This document shows positions 53,352 to 59,210 of a stretch of 63,668 bases of DNA, one piece after another. The notes under the pieces were generated by a model. That model searched no databases. It was not told where the DNA came from and saw only the letters and a program-made list of their open reading frames with translations. The position numbers and the translations under genes were made by a program. The DNA is taken from positions 1 to 63,668 of IMG/VR virus record IMGVR_UViG_3300049432_000050; one strand, given 5' to 3'. Position 1 is the stretch's first letter. Every line of letters begins with the position of its first letter. The DNA is from a virus (taxonomy: Duplodnaviria > Caudoviricetes).

Positions 53352-54839
53352 TCACGCCGGGATCGGTTCGGAATCCGGCGCATCGTCCGCGACGGCGAAC
53401 GACTCGTTGACCTCCGCTATGAGCTCATCGGGCACCCAGTAGGCGCGAAACCGGCGCGGCGTCATCGCGGTAGACGCGTCTGCCGGCGAAACCCACGGCA
53501 GCCATGAAAGCCACCGCGGCACCGTGTGCGCCTCGAACTCGTCCGCGGCCTCGTCCACCTTGACGTAGCCCACCCCCGGCAGCGACGGCGGGATCTCATC
53601 CGCTCGCGCGCCCGACATGTACGCGGTGCGGCCGAGAATCTTGCGGACCGTGTCCACGTTGTCGATGCGCAGAGCGATCTTTACGGGGATCTCGTCGCGG
53701 TCCCGCACGATCTCCTTCGTGGCGTTCTGGACGGCGCCGACGACGCTGCATCCCGGTGCGCGCCCGACGTTGATGAGTTGCCGCACCGACTCGCCGACCT
53801 TCTTATCCGCGGCGAGGACACCCTGCTCGTCGAAGAAGATGACCGTGAGAGGCCGCTCCGGCGTCGGTGTCAGCTTGCGCTCACCGCGTCCCTTCAGGTA
53901 CGGCAAGTTGTCCTTCATTCGCGTAACGCCCTTCGCGAGCAGCGCCTCGATGTCCTCGTCGGTATCCGCGAACTCAGCGAACAGATTGCGGCCCGGGAAC
54001 AACTCGACGCCGCCCTTCGCGTCCGCGACCCAAATCTCGACGGAGCCCTCCCGGATATACGGGATCAGGTGCAGGATGATGCTCCAGAACACCGAGCCCT
54101 TGCCCGCCCCCGTCTGCCCAACGACGAGGACGTGCGACCCGAGCACTGGGGCCGTAACCTTCCGCCCGCGCTCGTCGACGCCGATCGGGATGCGGCGCAG
54201 ATCCACCTCGCTCGTGGACGCCGGGATGCCGGGGAACGGGACGACGTCAGCGAGCGGGTCGTCCCCGCGGGGAAGCTCGAGCGTGACGTAGTCCGTCTGC
54301 GGGATGTCCGTCACGCGGCACTCCCGCGCGAGGAACGCTTTTGCGAGGTTCTGCGCGGTCTGCCCGTCATGCCCGACGAACTCGCGTGTCGTCTGTCCCG
54401 GCAGCACCTTCACGCGGACCGTGTCACCGGAGCGCGTGCAGGTCACCTTTGCGAGCTTCGGGACCTTGTCGAATCCGTTGTCAACGATCCCGGTGAGGTT
54501 CTGCCCAGCGAGCACGCGCTGCCACCGCCGCTCATACAGTCGCCACCTGCGGAACGCGCTGTACAGCCTGACGCCGATCAGGCCACGGTACGCCGCGAGG
54601 ACGCCCAGGCGGCCTGTTGTGCGCGCGAGGACGCGGCCCGTGATGTTCCATGCGATCAGGGCCAGGGCACCGTAGAACACGACGCCGACCGCGGCATGCA
54701 AGGTCGTCACGACCGCGAGCGCGACGAACGCGGCGAGCAGGCCGGCGCGGACCGGAAACCGGTATGCCGCGACAGCGACGATCGCGACCGTCTGACACAC
54801 AATCACGATGAGGTTCCAGATCAGGACCGCCCAATCCAT
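53352..54839 (-). CDS. FtsK/SpoIIIE-family (TraB-like) membrane DNA translocase
   Basis: N-terminal TM helices; HVLVVGQTGAGKG, DAKGGVEL, IFFDE, GRAPG...AVQ, PGVGYV. Confidence 0.9.
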   Translation of the reverse strand: MDWAVLIWNLIVIVCQTVAIVAVAAYRFPVRAGLLAAFVALAVVTTLHAAVGVVFYGALALIAWNITGRVLARTTGRLGVLAAYRGLIGVRLYSAFRRWRLYERRWQRVLAGQNLTGIVDNGFDKVPKLAKVTCTRSGDTVRVKVLPGQTTREFVGHDGQTAQNLAKAFLARECRVTDIPQTDYVTLELPRGDDPLADVVPFPGIPASTSEVDLRRIPIGVDERGRKVTAPVLGSHVLVVGQTGAGKGSVFWSIILHLIPYIREGSVEIWVADAKGGVELFPGRNLFAEFADTDEDIEALLAKGVTRMKDNLPYLKGRGERKLTPTPERPLTVIFFDEQGVLAADKKVGESVRQLINVGRAPGCSVVGAVQNATKEIVRDRDEIPVKIALRIDNVDTVRKILGRTAYMSGARADEIPPSLPGVGYVKVDEAADEFEAHTVPRWLSWLPWVSPADASTAMTPRRFRAYWVPDELIAEVNESFAVADDAPDSEPIPA

Positions 54840-56191
54840 CAGGCACCCACGTCGAAGAGGGAGCCCTGACCTGTCGCGGCGACCGCGGCGCGTGCCTGCT
54901 CGGCCTCCAGGCGCTTGACGAGCGTCATGCCGTCCGGGTGCTCAGACCACCACGCAATACGAGCCTCAGCGATCGCGACGTACTCCGGCTCGCGTTCGAT
55001 GCCGACGAAGTCAAAGCCCTCCAGCTCCGTCGCGCAGCCCGTTGTGCCGCTGCCGGCGAACGGGTCGAGCACCGTCCCGCTGGGCGGGGTGACGAGCCGC
55101 ACGAGCCAGCGCATCAGGCTCAAACTCTTAACAGTCGGATGGGTATTGCGCCGTGGCCGTGGGACGTTGGAACGGCCGGGCCGCGGCATCCTTTCGTGCA
55201 ATGTTCCGCTGGGGCGATGGTCGAATGGGTCGCTCTCGCGCTCCTCGAACCCCTCGAGTCCCGCGTTGCGCTCGGCGCTGGAACTCTTCGCGCAGTAGAA
55301 CGCGCGTCGTTCCGTGTCCTCATGCCGGTGGTCGAAGGTGGGGAAGAACCGCGACGCGCCACCCGAATCGCCCGTGCTGATGACCTTACCTATGGGTGGC
55401 GCAGGGATACCGTTGTAGCCCCCTAGACCGTAATCGCGTCGGGCGGTACCGGGATGAGTCGTCAGCGTTCCCGTCTGCTCATCCAATAAACGGACCGGGC
55501 AGTCCTCGACGCACCTGTACGCGGCGACCTCTTCGGTACCGTCAGCATCCGCGTAGCCCGCGCTCATATCGCCGTTGCGCCCAACCCCGGCCTTGAAGTC
55601 CAGCGATACGCCGGGGCTCTCGCTGCCGAACTGCGGGTTAGGCACAGCGGGGCTCGCGGACTTCACGCGTCGTGTCCCTACCGGCTCGCAACGGGGCGAG
55701 TGACTGAGGATCGTGTTCGCGGGCCAACGACCCAGGTTGGCGTTGTGGCCACCCTCGTCTCCGGCCTCACCGGCGTTCCATCCCCATCCATCAGCACGTC
55801 GTCCGCCGCTCACTGACGCCGGCACATCCTTTGACGAGCCCACCCGGCACCCGTCCACGTTCAGTGCCCCGGTCCCGCGCGCGAGGACGTTCGCGCTCAC
55901 GGTCCCGCTCAAGGGTTTGCGGGCGACGACGATCGGCTCATGCGCGGGCTTGAGAGCGGTCCCCCACCCGGCCCAGCGCTCAGCGTCGGGGGTGGCGGGC
56001 GCGGTGACGGGAACCATGCCATTTATGGTTTCCGACCGCGACGTAAAGCCATCCGTGGCACCCGTCGTTCCCTGCCCCGCGTAGGTTGCGCCGCGCGTGC
56101 CATCCGGGAACTGGGGTCGCATTCCGACGACCTCCCGCTCCACTCCCGCCGCCTTGTCGATCGCCTTGCTCACGTCCAGCGACTTAGGCGC
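54839..56191 (-). CDS. Amino-DNA methyltransferase (N6A/N4C, beta class), C-terminal part
   Basis: KSLDVSKAIDK, GWGTALKPAHEPI, GRWPAN, HPTVK, VLDPFAGSGTTG; same frame as 56192-56620. Confidence 0.88.
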   Translation of the reverse strand, partial: APKSLDVSKAIDKAAGVEREVVGMRPQFPDGTRGATYAGQGTTGATDGFTSRSETINGMVPVTAPATPDAERWAGWGTALKPAHEPIVVARKPLSGTVSANVLARGTGALNVDGCRVGSSKDVPASVSGGRRADGWGWNAGEAGDEGGHNANLGRWPANTILSHSPRCEPVGTRRVKSASPAVPNPQFGSESPGVSLDFKAGVGRNGDMSAGYADADGTEEVAAYRCVEDCPVRLLDEQTGTLTTHPGTARRDYGLGGYNGIPAPPIGKVISTGDSGGASRFFPTFDHRHEDTERRAFYCAKSSSAERNAGLEGFEERESDPFDHRPSGTLHERMPRPGRSNVPRPRRNTHPTVKSLSLMRWLVRLVTPPSGTVLDPFAGSGTTGCATELEGFDFVGIEREPEYVAIAEARIAWWSEHPDGMTLVKRLEAEQARAAVAATGQGSLFDVGA

Positions 56192-56620
56192 TCAGGGGAA
56201 GCCGCTCCCGTACAACCAGTCCAGTTCTGGTCCGAGCGACTCCCCATTGGCATCACCTCCCCCGTTCAGGTGGAGGATGCGGTCACGGATCTCGAAACCG
56301 GCGAGGCGGATCGCGATGCACAGCAGGTCATACGTCCTAGTGCCCCCGAAGGCAACGAGGTGCGCCCCGGGTTTCAGGACGCGGTAGACCTCTCGCCAGT
56401 ACGCGGGTCCGGGCACAAAGCTATCCCAGGAACTCCCCATGAATCCATTGCCGCGATGGACGTAGTCGTCTCCGGCGAGCCAGTGCGTCAAGACCTCCGC
56501 GATGTCCGGCTCACGGCTCAGGCCGTAGGGCGGATCAGTCACGCACGCGTCAACACTCGCTTCGGGCATCGCGGCCATCGCCTCGACGCAGTTGCCGTGG
56601 ATGATGCGCGAGCCCATCAC
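56192..56620 (-). CDS. Amino-DNA methyltransferase, N-terminal part ending at an in-frame TGA
   Basis: VTDPPYG, RVLKPG, GFEIRD, WLYGSGFP*. Confidence 0.88.
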   Translation of the reverse strand: MMGSRIIHGNCVEAMAAMPEASVDACVTDPPYGLSREPDIAEVLTHWLAGDDYVHRGNGFMGSSWDSFVPGPAYWREVYRVLKPGAHLVAFGGTRTYDLLCIAIRLAGFEIRDRILHLNGGGDANGESLGPELDWLYGSGFP

Positions 56621-57021
56621 TCGGCCTCCCTCGCGAGCCGGCGAAGCTCCTTCTCGGCGCGGTCCGCCTTGCGTGCCTGCTCATCGCACTCCCCGGCAAA
56701 CCTGTCCGCCTCCTTCGCGGCGAACCGGGCAGCCGACGCCACGCACCGCCGCAACGCCTGCGCGCACCGGCCGTGCGCCGCGACAACCAACGCGAGCGCG
56801 TGATCCGCGTCCAACACCAGATCAGCGTCCGCGGCATCATCGTCGAACTCGCGCACAGCCAGGTACGCCCTGTCCATGCTCGTCCGGGCACGCTTCAGCG
56901 CCGCGTGCGCCCGCTGCCGAGCCCCAGCGCACCGTCGCTTCAGCGCTACCGCCTGAGCCTGCGCACGCCCCTCGTCACGCTGCAGGAACGCGGCCTGCGC
57001 CTGCTGGCGCGCGTCAGGCAT
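56617..57021 (-). CDS. Hypothetical Ala-rich helical protein
   Basis: GGGGAG RBS; TGATG and GTGA coupling. Confidence 0.65.
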   Translation of the reverse strand: MPDARQQAQAAFLQRDEGRAQAQAVALKRRCAGARQRAHAALKRARTSMDRAYLAVREFDDDAADADLVLDADHALALVVAAHGRCAQALRRCVASAARFAAKEADRFAGECDEQARKADRAEKELRRLAREAE

Positions 57022-57137
57022 CAGGACCACTCCCCGGACCGCATGAGCTCCCGGACGGCTCGCCCGACGAGCCAAGCAGCGTAGACGTGAACGCCGTCGC
57101 CGAGTGCGGACAGCCGGGATCGGTCCACCCGCGCCCG
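57021..57137 (-). pseudogene. Orphaned duplicate 3' end of the C5 methyltransferase gene
   Basis: Encodes RARVDRSRLSALGDGVHVYAAWLVGRAVRELMRSGEWS*, homologous to the C-terminus of 57688-58866. Confidence 0.85.
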
Positions 57138-57159
57138 CACTCGCCGCACACGGGCGGGG

Positions 57160-57654
57160 CTACTCGTCGCGGACGATCACGAACTCTGCGCCGATCTTGC
57201 GCTTCGTCAGGAGAGGGTCGCCGTACTTCTTGAAGCGCTGGTGATGCTTCCCACAGAGGGCGAGCCTGCGTGCCGGCTTCCCGCAAACTGAGCACATGGT
57301 GCGCGGCCGCGCTTTCTTGCCGTGGCGCCAGTGCCAGCGCAGATGGCAGGAGCCGCAGAGGGTTGCGATGTTCTCCTCGACGTTGTTCGACGGGTCCTCG
57401 TCGCGGTGATGCGTGTGCAGGCCCTCGATCGCGCCGCACTCCTCGCAAGCTCGTCCGCGTAGCTTCTTCGCTCGGGCGCGGTTCCCAGCGAGACTGACAA
57501 TGTCCTGTCGCATGCCGTCGGCCATGCACCGCTCGTCGCAGTAGATGCGTGCCAGAAAGCGGGTGCGGTCCTCCAGCCGACCGTTGAAGCGCTTGCGGAT
57601 AAGCTGCTCCCCGCATGCGGCGCAGTGCTTGACCGGATCGGGCTTCGCCTTCAT
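57160..57654 (-). CDS. HNH homing endonuclease
   Basis: CAACG, CEECG, HTHHRDEDPSNN..ENIATLCGSCH, LCGKHHQR..KYGDP; TATGAT 8 nt upstream of ATG. Confidence 0.9.
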   Translation of the reverse strand: MKAKPDPVKHCAACGEQLIRKRFNGRLEDRTRFLARIYCDERCMADGMRQDIVSLAGNRARAKKLRGRACEECGAIEGLHTHHRDEDPSNNVEENIATLCGSCHLRWHWRHGKKARPRTMCSVCGKPARRLALCGKHHQRFKKYGDPLLTKRKIGAEFVIVRDE

Positions 57655-57677
57655 CGGTTCCCATCATACAACGTGTG

Positions 57678-58862
57678 TTAGTCGGCATCATTCCCACCGT
57701 CCTGCCTGCATGTGCTCTCGGATGGCAAGCCCAACTGTGTACGCCACATGGACGCAAACTCCGTCACCGAGAGCGCTGAGTCTGGATCGGTCCACCCGGG
57801 CGGCACTCCGAGCATCCACTCCACGAACTCGGGAGCTAAGCGGAGCCGGGGCGGATCCGTGGACGCGTCCCCATCGGTGGATGGCGGGGGCGTAGGCGCC
57901 CCAGTCGACAGCGACGCCATGGCTCCGCTCAGCTTTAGGTCGCCCTTGCCATATCGCTGCTGATTCTTCTCCCCATCCGACCGACTCGGAGTCGGCAGGA
58001 GGTTGAGCTTCGTCGCGGTGATCTCCAGGGACTTGCGCTCGAACTCGCTCGGTGCTCCCGTGTCCTTCACCATGTGCCGCGTCGGCGTCGGGAGCATCGC
58101 AAGGGACTTCATCAGCGAGGTGCCGGTGCTGTTCTTGCCGGGGATGTTCGGGCTGCCATCCGCCCGCCCGTCGCGTGCCACTGGCGTTGGCAGCAGCGGT
58201 GTCGACCCGGTCACCATGTTGCGTTCCGCTGCCGGCCGATGCTCGTACACCTCTACGAACCCCGACAGCGAACAACCGGTCCCGGAGATGGGGGGCCCCG
58301 ACCGCGGCGGCGGGGACGCATTCCCAGCGGACATCGAACCCGAGCGTGGCCATGTCCCTGAGAACGACTCCCCACAGGGATCCAGCAGGCTCGCCTGGGG
58401 CAGCAGCCATCCCCCTGATGTCGCCGACGTTCTCAATGAGCACGTAGCGAGGTTCAAGCTCGCCAATGAGTCGCTGCATCTCGCCCCACAGAAAGGTTTC
58501 GGCGTGCTCGAACCCGTTGCGCTTCCCGGCGCTGGAGATGCCACGGCAGGGGAACCCGCCGGCGACGAGGTCGACCGGTGTAGCGATGTCAGCGCGAACT
58601 CCAACTCGTTCCCCGTCGGCCCCGGCTTGCGGGCTTGGCCCTCCTTCGCGAAGCCGTGTGGCGTGGGCAGCAGCTTGACCTCGCAGGGTGCGGATGTCAT
58701 CGAACACCGGCACCCCGGGGAACCTGGTCCCGAGTAGCTCGCGTCGCCATGGGTCGGATTCGCACATCCAAGCGTGCCGGAAGCCGGCGAGGTGCAGCCC
58801 GAGGTCGAGCAATCCCACGCCAGAAAAGAGGGACCCGACCGTGGGACATCCTTCCGGCCCAT
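57678..58862 (-). CDS. Alternative-frame polypeptide of the C5 methyltransferase (motif IX and four LPTP repeats; true start may be internal)
   Basis: 394-codon open frame; WPRSG, LPTP x4, LAPEFVEWMLGVPPGWTD. Confidence 0.7.
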   Translation of the reverse strand: MGRKDVPRSGPSFLAWDCSTSGCTSPASGTLGCANPTHGDASYSGPGSPGCRCSMTSAPCEVKLLPTPHGFAKEGQARKPGPTGNELEFALTSLHRSTSSPAGSPAVASPAPGSATGSSTPKPFCGARCSDSLASLNLATCSLRTSATSGGWLLPQASLLDPCGESFSGTWPRSGSMSAGNASPPPRSGPPISGTGCSLSGFVEVYEHRPAAERNMVTGSTPLLPTPVARDGRADGSPNIPGKNSTGTSLMKSLAMLPTPTRHMVKDTGAPSEFERKSLEITATKLNLLPTPSRSDGEKNQQRYGKGDLKLSGAMASLSTGAPTPPPSTDGDASTDPPRLRLAPEFVEWMLGVPPGWTDPDSALSVTEFASMWRTQLGLPSESTCRQDGGNDAD

Positions 58863-58866
58863 TCAC
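57688..58866 (-). CDS. DNA (cytosine-5) methyltransferase, catalytic polypeptide lacking motif IX
   Basis: SLFSGVG, GGFPC, IENV, GAPHLRDRLF, RLSALGDGV; GGAGG RBS + GTG. Confidence 0.9.
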   Translation of the reverse strand: MNGPEGCPTVGSLFSGVGLLDLGLHLAGFRHAWMCESDPWRRELLGTRFPGVPVFDDIRTLRGQAAAHATRLREGGPSPQAGADGERVGVRADIATPVDLVAGGFPCRGISSAGKRNGFEHAETFLWGEMQRLIGELEPRYVLIENVGDIRGMAAAPGEPAGSLWGVVLRDMATLGFDVRWECVPAAAVGAPHLRDRLFAVGVRRGVRASAGSGTQHGDRVDTAAANASGTRRAGGWQPEHPRQEQHRHLADEVPCDAPDADAAHGEGHGSTERVRAQVPGDHRDEAQPPADSESVGWGEESAAIWQGRPKAERSHGVAVDWGAYAPAIHRWGRVHGSAPAPLSSRVRGVDARSAARVDRSRLSALGDGVCVHVAYTVGLAIREHMQAGRWE

Positions 58867-59210
58867 GACCCCTCCCGTTGCGCAACCAGCCGGAACCGCT
58901 GCCACGAACACCAACGATGCGCAAGGCGCGTCACCCGGTCCCCCGCCGACGAATGATCGTAAGCCGGGACGAACCCAACAGCGTCATCACGCTCGAGCAC
59001 CCGCGGCCACCCATTCGCCCGCGCATACGCCACGTCCGCCGCGGGCACCCGGACCGCGATAACGCCCTTCGATGCGTGGCAGTGGCGGTCCTCGTTCGTG
59101 CGGTCATTCGCCGCGCCGACCACCCACGCCCACACACACACCGCGGCCACAACCGCACCGAGGAACGCGACACGGATAGCCAACGCACCGAACAACGAAC
59201 GCGGCTGCAT
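58863..59210 (-). CDS. Membrane-anchored hypothetical protein
   Basis: N-terminal TM helix; coupled. Confidence 0.6.
   Translation of the reverse strand: MQPRSLFGALAIRVAFLGAVVAAVCVWAWVVGAANDRTNEDRHCHASKGVIAVRVPAADVAYARANGWPRVLERDDAVGFVPAYDHSSAGDRVTRLAHRWCSWQRFRLVAQREGS

Follow-up and report, generated by a model that had tools for sequence, protein, structure and literature searches.

A gene for an HNH endonuclease lies between two diverged copies of the 3′ end of a cytosine-5 DNA methyltransferase gene in the IMG/VR virus record IMGVR_UViG_3300049432_000050, a phage sequence of 63,668 bases (G+C 68%), the whole of which is referred to here as the window. The upstream copy, tail A, completes the methyltransferase, and the downstream copy, tail B, contains an orphan open reading frame (ORF) of 42 amino acids (aa). 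The methyltransferase is read in two overlapping frames, alpha (catalytic body and motif X) and beta (+1 relative to alpha; recognition modules and motif IX). We consider it probable that a selfish HNH homing gene invaded this two-frame methyltransferase, and that it now sits behind an imported tail A with the native tail B stranded downstream.

Two copies of the methyltransferase 3′ end flank the HNH gene

On the minus strand, the genes are arranged 5′ to 3′ in the order cytosine-5 methyltransferase, HNH gene, 42-aa orphan, 135-aa gene and N6/N4 methyltransferase. The initial annotation had described the methyltransferase 3′ end as occurring on both sides of the HNH gene, and this was confirmed: all the strings that it quoted are present, including the exact 15-mer GGATCGGTCCACCCG at both 57117-57131 and 57784-57798, and the repeat proved to be longer than had been described. 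Blastn of 57684-57808 against 57017-57142 gave an alignment of 126 nucleotides (nt) with 69.8% identity and one gap (E 2.4e-12), and its score of 53.6 bits compares with a maximum of 27.4 among 200 shuffles. The other copy was the sole second match of the tail in the whole window. In the alpha frame, the protein ends on the upstream copy as ...RVDRSRLSALGDGVCVHVAYTVGLAIREHMQAGRWE followed by a stop, and the orphan ORF (57021..57149) is translated as MRRVRARVDRSRLSALGDGVHVYAAWLVGRAVRELMRSGEWS, also followed by a stop; the +1 frame reads GWTDPDSALSVTEF in the ORF 57678..58862 and GWTDPGCPHSATAF in the ORF 57014..57757.

As read from the sequence, a Shine-Dalgarno-like run (GGGGAG) falls within the last codons of tail B, as does the overlap with the next gene (TGATG). 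The orphan begins with a GTG 10 nt past the HNH stop, and its own stop overlaps the ATG of the next gene, which had been taken to mark it as the original gene end. This argument fails, since the stop/start overlap TGATGCC is found in both repeat copies and thus cannot by itself tell which of them is original.

A search of 56500-59000 against Rfam gave 0 matches at E ≤ 1, indicating no known intron, and the idea of an intron at the locus was dropped. When the DNA of the same interval was used to search the phage collection, nothing near was retrieved, and a distant search gave only 75-82-nt matches in other methylases.

Tail B is the native-like end and tail A the outlier

The comparison with relatives supports, at the level of sequence, the assignment of tail B as the native end of the methyltransferase and of tail A as the outlier. 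With 11 HNH-free relatives, the identity over a 57-nt core is 0.74-0.82 for tail B and 0.65-0.81 for tail A; over 110 nt, the corresponding values are 0.54-0.65 and 0.48-0.62. The protein P0050, an HNH-free beta-frame protein of 380 aa which is 48% identical to the window beta and ends in ...FVEWMMGTPVCGECGLGWTDPDCPHSVTAYTSTAPGSSGARSGSGCEPGSGRDA, is matched at its C-terminus by the beta-like frame of tail B in 35 of 46 residues (76%, E 2e-15) with no gap, whereas the match to tail A is about 40% and requires a gap of six residues.

For the alpha frame, the homologues were ranked by the N-terminal domain alone, and the script found motif X in 22 of the top 26 examined. Tail B is the closer one in 16 of these 22 homologues and tail A in 3, with 3 ties. 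The four nearest homologues (P0074, P0075, P0076 and P0088, with 69-71% N-terminal identity) are all closer to tail B; for instance, P0088 shares 31 of 36 residues with tail B vs. 23 of 36 with tail A. Tail A resembles more distant members of the family (CVHVAY and VGLAIREHM types), and tail B those of the HVYxAWxVGRAVRELMRxGEW type. The match to P0050 and the agreement of the four nearest alpha homologues thus uphold the identification of the downstream orphan as the original end, on grounds other than those first given. The G+C content at the third codon position (GC3) in the alpha frame is 0.61 over the 36 codons of tail A and 0.83 in tail B, as compared to 0.78-0.87 in the neighbouring genes.

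The 14-residue core RVDRSRLSALGDGV is identical in both tails, and 10 codons of the 37-codon tail differ synonymously, including AGA/CGG and AGC/TCC within the core. An identical core combined with 10 synonymous differences fits two recently joined functional orthologues better than a duplication in place, and suggests that both tails evolved under selection before being joined. A degenerate pattern for the core matched no viral contig; the shorter RSRLSALGDGV matched 11 contigs, all of them HNH-free, and P0050 was not found in the viral contigs searched.

A further peculiarity of this region concerns six extra residues in motif IX (P-VCGECG-xGW or P-SCGACG-REW), which are found in tail B, P0050 and P0053 and are missing from 11 other relatives. 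In the window, this stretch (57117-57150) directly adjoins the HNH stop. The six residues could be the footprint of an earlier HNH insertion or loss.

Table 1. Features of the methyltransferase-HNH locus in the window
Feature	Position	Strand	Evidence
Cytosine-5 methyltransferase alpha ORF, 408 aa + stop	57688..58914	-	Pfam PF00145 3.8e-31, aa 26-225; PHROG 363 3.4e-50; tblastn to Tweety gp72; alignment with 9 relatives
Beta-frame ORF, +1 vs. alpha, 394 aa, start codon uncertain	57678..58862	-	tblastn to TaylorSipht gp41; PHROG 1008; GC3 switching
Tail A, upstream repeat copy: motif IX end (beta), motif X and alpha stop, TGATGCC-GAC	57684..57808	-	blastn, alignment
TATGAT, -10-like hexamer	57663..57668	-	sequence; 8 nt ahead of HNH ATG
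HNH endonuclease gene, 164 aa	57160..57654	-	ORF; PHROG 1271 2.6e-9; family alignment
Tail B, downstream orphan copy, supported as the detached native methyltransferase end	57017..57142	-	blastn; P0050 C-terminus; 4 nearest alpha homologues
42-aa orphan ORF, alpha-like frame of tail B, GTG start	57021..57149	-	ORF list
-1 frame of the HNH gene, free of stops over 225 codons, starting at the ATG that overlaps the alpha stop	57014..57691	-	within ORF 57014..57757; no PHROG match
Next gene, 135 aa, no family match; ATG overlaps tail B stop	56617..57024	-	Pfam, PHROG

Both overlapping frames of the methyltransferase appear to be coding

Judged by its motifs and coding statistics, the locus is a phage cytosine-5 methyltransferase of two overlapping frames, with the catalytic body and motif X in alpha and the recognition modules and motif IX in beta. 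Single-frame or two-gene actinophage methyltransferases (Tweety gp72; TaylorSipht gp40 and gp41) served as tblastn queries. They placed the N-terminal catalytic domain, the WG.Y..AI.RW..AP.P block and motif X in one frame (alpha), and the LLPTPxxxD modules and motif IX (FVEWMLGVPPGW; FVEWM.G.P.GW) in the +1 frame (beta); the split is identical in the window and in the loci L002 and L007. In the window, alpha proceeds from motifs I-VIII through an unconserved linker to WGAYAPAIHRW..APAP and then to motif X (LGDGV) inside tail A, and the beta-frame ORF contains the LLPTPxxxD modules and motif IX (PEFVEWMLGVPPGWTD). Over the LLPTP-module stretch, the alpha sequence is unconserved in the alignment with 9 relatives. 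The GC3 preference alternates between the two frames along the gene, and beta matches PHROG 1008 ‘DNA methyltransferase’ with residues 97-363 (1.2e-23).

To extend the comparison, 80 viral loci were sampled by alignment of the alpha N-terminal domain, out of 574 relatives reported in the collection. Six of them were too short and three were without motif X by the pattern used, leaving 71 classifiable loci. In 66 of the 71, motif X is read in the alpha frame, and in 64 the alpha ORF extends as far as this motif. When the catalytic region was examined for stops, 75 of 78 loci had none in the +1 frame, vs. 2.6 expected from synonymous-codon shuffling, and in none of the 78 was the -1 frame open. 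A beta ORF at a +1 offset lies inside the alpha gene in the window and in 11 subfamily relatives. The 11 HNH-free viral loci with the RSRLSALGDGV pattern share FVEWMxGxPxGWSDPxCxLSATEF in the +1 frame, and positions that are synonymous in alpha, e.g., GGA GTT, are conserved in them, which argues that the beta tail is under selection too, over about 16 codons past GW.

The tblastn motif map, the PHROG 1008 match and the open +1 frame support both overlapping frames as genuine coding frames, in agreement with the earlier claim that the second frame is preserved. The accompanying claim, that the tail must satisfy two frames at once, holds for roughly the first 16 codons past GW and not beyond them. 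Programmed frameshifting was considered for the frame-alternating motifs and dropped: four shifts would be needed, the junctions showed no slippery sites, and there is an open +1 frame right from the start of the gene.

Several observations on the two frames may be recorded here. In nearly all sampled loci, the beta-frame ORF begins at -2 to -263 nt relative to the alpha start (e.g., L007:2834-4605), and the two frames stay open side by side over 250-450 codons, also where G+C is only 40-55%; gene callers give such ORFs the name ‘hypothetical protein’. Compared with Tweety gp72, the window alpha contains 29 additional residues, inserted between motifs I-III and IV (about 58595-58690, minus strand). 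The beta-frame reading of this DNA is an extra module, KLLPTPHGFAKEGQARKPGPTGNELEFAL, GC3 there favours beta, and the same module also occupies the last LLPTP position of P0050. It seems that loops of one chain accommodate modules of the other. In an HNH-free relative (L204:1949-3460, minus strand of the locus), the same motif III-IV loop holds an in-frame alpha insertion of about 150 residues with a Pfam HTH_7 match (4.6e-5) and, by eye, a nuclease-like CxxC...HH...CxxCHxxWH signature. This insertion may represent another endonuclease, of a different kind, that has settled in the gene family.

Related HNH genes are usually nested in the methyltransferase ORF

The HNH protein has two CxxC..CxxxC/H zinc knuckles and an HH..N..N..H core, and it has the conserved residue at each of the 22 invariant positions of a 29-sequence family alignment, C70, C73, H82, H83, N91, N95, C100, H104 and H108 among them. 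It has 46 homologues at E ≤ 1e-3, of which the closest, P0005-P0007, are 80-82% identical and known as proteins only. Loci were collected with a 10-sequence HNH alignment, which gave 22 viral, 80 metagenome and 5 genome loci. Removal of one same-contig locus, partial matches (E > 1e-25) and identical HNH sequences left 82 distinct loci.

The position of the HNH gene is the same in all 82 loci, behind motif IX and ahead of motif X of such a methyltransferase. The -1 frame is open through the whole HNH gene in 81 of them (the exception is L050). Of the 78 loci that extend at least 120 nt beyond the HNH, 69 have a canonical motif X (R..RL..LGN..VP) directly behind it in the -1 frame, and the other 9 mostly have variant spellings of motif X. 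Where an N-terminal match was available, the HNH is in the beta frame in 58 of 65 loci and in the third frame in 7. Among the complete HNH genes, 72 of 74 have no stop in the -1 frame vs. 0.59 expected (the null mean is 7.0 stops per gene), and the +1 frame is open in none of the 74 (mean 7.65 stops). The open -1 frame and the motif X behind the HNH thus indicate that the usual layout is a nuclease gene nested in the methyltransferase ORF and read through by it. A replaced tail, which had been proposed as the way in which the element stays harmless, is therefore not the usual way of this family, in which nested read-through is seen in 81 of 82 loci.

The distribution of the HNH gene is sporadic. 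Only 2 of the 80 methyltransferases sampled irrespective of HNH carry it, and HNH-bearing and HNH-free N-terminal domains may be nearly the same (94.7% identity in L011/L146, 95.9% in L091/L150 and 91.8% in L018/L150). In the DNA alignments of L011/L146 and L091/L150, near identity is found on both sides of the cassette, and about 66 nt after the PRWV codons are replaced. In both pairs, the cassette brings a diverged motif IX end (LMNxPVFWVKP and a stop in place of LMGLPxGWTMPSC...), a promoter-like stretch and the HNH gene, and the right flank RTDELRLLGNGVVP... is unaltered. HNH identity tracks methyltransferase identity loosely (r 0.73, 1024 pairs), and N-terminal domains that are 50-65% identical can carry HNHs up to 99.3% identical. 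These data support the description of the HNH family as a sporadic, single-site, probably mobile element of diverged cytosine-5 methyltransferase genes. Of the proposal that the element targets motif IX/X, what stands is the single site of the family in 82 loci and its absence from near-identical alleles.

A short direct repeat is also associated with this junction. The strings GWTD(L), at the end of motif IX, and RVDR(L), leading into motif X, are near-identical over about 15 nt, one base apart (cf. 57784-57798 in the window). They flank the HNH as a direct repeat in L032 (2925-2945 and 3525-3545), L033 and L038, and among the 71 loci of the sample that could be classified, 28 have the two strings superimposed, all of them HNH-free.

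The window departs from the usual layout

In the window, the alpha stop (57688-57690) is on tail A, 34 nt ahead of the HNH ATG (57654), so that the HNH gene is not nested. Its -1 frame has no stops vs. 3.2 expected (P 0.01, synonymous shuffling); it starts at the ATG overlapping the alpha stop and enters the beta-like frame of tail B, not motif X. This open frame looks like a relic of the nested read-through state.

A methyltransferase tail on both sides of the HNH was found in only 2 of 71 well-flanked loci, namely the window (126 nt) and L034, which has a full motif X ahead of the HNH and a decayed remnant, LSNLPVVPQCVAAAFVALSAAL, behind it. L032, L033 and L038 gave a short match only, which arises because nearly identical nucleotides, offset by one base, encode GWTDL and RVDRL. 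To judge from this layout, in the window and L034 a replacement tail ends the methyltransferase before the HNH, unlike the read-through that is usual in the family. No second genome with tail A plus the window HNH was found.

The lone -10-like hexamer TATGAT (57663-57668), 8 nt before the HNH ATG, may give rise to a leaderless HNH transcript. Within 70 nt upstream of the HNH, the pattern TGnTAnnnT occurs in 25 of 80 family loci vs. none of 70 control windows. The claim that the HNH gene has its own -10 is thus borne out as regards the hexamer; as regards a full promoter it is not (see below).

A scenario for the origin of the locus

In the scenario that we favour, the HNH nuclease would cut HNH-free alleles at the doubly coded IX/X junction and spread by repair. 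A co-infecting relative would have supplied tail A and the HNH as a unit, or recombination would have recruited tail A beside the HNH; in either case, the source of tail A would be a less closely related methyltransferase of this family. The unit would have replaced the native sequence from about motif IX onward, leaving tail B behind the nuclease gene. By supplying the last ~40 codons, tail A would complete both alpha (motif X and stop) and beta (motif IX end) upstream of the HNH, and since it finishes both chains, the methyltransferase need no longer be read through the HNH. The many synonymous changes in tail A would protect it from cutting, and the HNH would be expressed from its own -10. 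Though detached from the enzyme, tail B would still provide the next gene with its ribosome-binding run and with the overlap at its start. The 42-codon orphan frame, starting 10 nt past the HNH stop, may pass ribosomes on to that gene as a translational-coupling relay. Taken as a whole, the interpretation offered in the initial annotation is partly supported and right in most respects.

A broader and much more tentative idea, which we would rate as unlikely, is that the subunit architecture of these methyltransferases owes its form to HNH traffic at the IX/X junction, where both frames code. Recombination between the GWTD and RVDR strings would delete the HNH, superimpose both motifs and shift motif X into the alpha frame. 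Such a deletion would turn an AquI-like split, where beta comprises the target recognition domain (TRD), motif IX and motif X, into an EcoHK31I-like nested form. The window would then represent a third state, in which the element escaped from the gene interior by carrying a whole spare tail.

Points against this scenario and alternative explanations

A number of results weigh against the invasion of the gene from outside with an imported tail A. P0050 and the alpha homologues were compared as proteins only. The low GC3 of tail A is based on 36 codons, the first 19 of which are no lower than one hand-checked relative. The HNH with motif X downstream of it is a conserved unit in about 70 loci, which fits a cassette-borne tail B equally well. 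Tail A also ends in TGATGCC-GAC, and its source must then have had the same downstream gene, so that a nuclease-free recombination of close relatives would give the same picture. The correlation of 0.73 between N-terminal domain and HNH identity implies that much of the family history is vertical, and the sampled loci are related by descent, such that the counts given above are not independent events. As to the nuclease itself, its Pfam HNH score (16.5 bits) is under the cut-off of 21.4, and a consensus scan of 56900-57900 found no full sigma-70-type promoter. Finally, among the contigs from the single run that holds this DNA, none skips the HNH.

The alternative that survives best is one of reverse polarity, in which tail A is resident and the promoter, the HNH and tail B, with or without the start of the next gene, were imported from an HNH-bearing relative by homologous recombination at the right end and illegitimate recombination at the left end (..GCC|GAC TAA..). 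We regard it as a minority possibility that deserves to be kept in mind. It agrees with the conservation of the HNH and the following -1-frame motif X as a unit (69 of 78 loci), with the likeness of the post-HNH part of tail B, SSPARVRRVRARVDRS, to the family linker PGVPRV...RVDRL, and with the context of the beta stop (..DAD-stop-HTLYDG), which resembles the sequence ahead of the HNH in the family (..DVD-stop-..PHML-stop-WY). Moreover, the methyltransferase with tail A is a complete gene of the HNH-free type. What speaks against tail A as the resident is that the relatives with the nearest N-terminal domains match tail B (4 of 4, and 16 vs. 3 overall), that the C-terminus of P0050 is 76% identical to tail B vs. 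about 40% to tail A, and that the atypical GC3 (0.61) belongs to tail A.

We find it improbable that the HNH is a domesticated partner of the methyltransferase, e.g., a nuclease blocked by phage methylation, with the layout resulting from operon compaction. Its long and stable association with one methyltransferase family, the selection that keeps three overlapping frames intact and the correlated identities (r 0.73) would all be expected of such a partner. A partner should hardly be present in only 2 of 80 methyltransferases sampled regardless of HNH, or missing from alleles that are about 95% identical, and HNH pairs up to 99.3% identical occur in methyltransferases only 50-65% identical. 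For the ShiLan insertion discussed below, the authors of PMC11855218 favour the same mobile-element reading.

A tandem duplication in place, followed by drift of the copies and involving no foreign tail, is still less probable. Over 110 nt, the tails are more alike mutually than to most relatives (0.68 vs. 0.48-0.65), and L034 likewise has two related copies. An unused copy would be expected to decay, yet tail B retains the 14 core residues and open alpha-like and beta-like frames; the 10 synonymously different codons across the 37-codon tail include two multi-step changes, and the two tails resemble different sub-lineages of the family.

An assembly artefact, i.e., a contig chimeric between two strains, is hardly credible: the record is a metagenome assembly and one run only holds the sequence, but in a second assembly of this run, a Logan contig of 47,792 nt covers 56400-59100 without a single difference, copies that are about 70% alike do not confuse assemblers, and L034 independently shows the same layout. 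Extra summed depth in the contigs of that run, seen only over 57037-57127 (the tail B core), was given no weight. The import of tail A together with the HNH, ahead of a native tail B, remains the reading that we prefer.

Neighbouring genes

The N6/N4 DNA methyltransferase (54839-56620, minus strand) contains a single in-frame TGA at 56192-56194 (..YGSGFP-stop-APKSLDVSKAIDK..). It separates a 142-aa ORF (56192..56620) from a 444-aa ORF (54839..56173) in the same frame, which match the positions 1-79 and 159-220 of the PF01555 profile, respectively. The TGA is identical in the second assembly of the run; it could reflect a sequencing error, a nonsense mutation or read-through. A 495-aa FtsK/SpoIIIE-like protein (PHROG 1358, 4.1e-21) is encoded next to the methyltransferase block on its downstream side, at 53352-54839 (minus strand).

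Discussion

Free-standing endonuclease genes of phages, such as segF of T4, home without introns: they lie between coding sequences and spread by break repair with co-conversion of the flanks, and the donor flanks are diverged. To our knowledge, elements of the T4 SegF type lie between genes and carry no duplicated gene end. An abstract-level literature search gave no phage report of an endonuclease-borne tail duplication besides the ShiLan paper considered below, which does not prove the absence of such reports.

The closest parallel in layout comes from fungal mitochondria. PMC3630166 describes mobile endonuclease ORFs (mORFs) that make ‘gene hybrids’ in atp6 of Allomyces macrogynus and in atp6, atp9, cox2 and nad3 of Glomus sp. 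As in these gene hybrids, the locus of the window consists of a core, an in-phase C-terminus that is putatively foreign, an endonuclease ORF and a stranded C-terminus that is probably native: diverged 3′ ends flank the endonuclease ORF, the upstream copy is in phase and complete, and the downstream copy is the native one at the protein level. The resemblance to Glomus atp6 extends to the divergence of the copies, which are 63.5% identical in DNA in Glomus and 70% in the window and similar in protein, the native copy matching close relatives. Unlike those gene hybrids, the window is of phage and not of organellar origin, and its nuclease is an HNH rather than a LAGLIDADG or GIY-YIG enzyme. A further difference is that the replaced tail serves two frames and that the nuclease family usually uses read-through instead.

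The closest parallel among phages is the ShiLan domain or Pacc40 insertion, described in PMC11855218 (Arsenault, Gosselin and Gogarten 2025) as a hidden out-of-frame HNH in methylase genes of actinobacteriophages, including mycobacteriophages. It shares with the present family an HNH located in a phage methylase without intron or intein, a stop-free host frame (cf. 81 of 82 loci here) and a sporadic distribution. Leaderless or own-start expression is proposed there, and the authors point out that the beginning of the insert resembles, over a short stretch, the sequence that follows it. In contrast to ShiLan, the window methylase ends 34 nt before the HNH on a duplicated tail, and the -1 frame appears as a disconnected relic. 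The likeness is one of layout.

For the methyltransferase itself, PMC2836561 offers M.EcoHK31I, whose beta polypeptide is encoded wholly inside alpha in another frame and supplies motif IX, with motifs I-VIII, motif X and the TRD in alpha. The window resembles M.EcoHK31I in having motifs I-VIII and X in alpha and a nested beta with motif IX in another frame. It differs in that the recognition modules (LLPTP repeats) are in beta, so the TRD is not on alpha as in M.EcoHK31I. Other differences from that system are that the beta frame is open from the gene start and that an alpha segment (WG.Y..AI.RW) is interleaved among beta segments.

Both the kind of nuclease family and the kind of tail swap are known from elsewhere, and no new principle is involved. 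One homing-endonuclease family would have two splicing-free ways of living in a coding gene: as a nested gene through which the host frame is translated, or downstream of a spare copy of the gene end. The IX/X junction, with its double coding, suggests itself as a candidate target of the nuclease. Such loci are liable to mis-annotation, in that beta ORFs are called ‘hypothetical’ and orphan tails resemble small genes. If the proposed history is right, the ‘gene hybrid’ layout of fungal mitochondria would extend to phages, where the spare end serves two reading frames.

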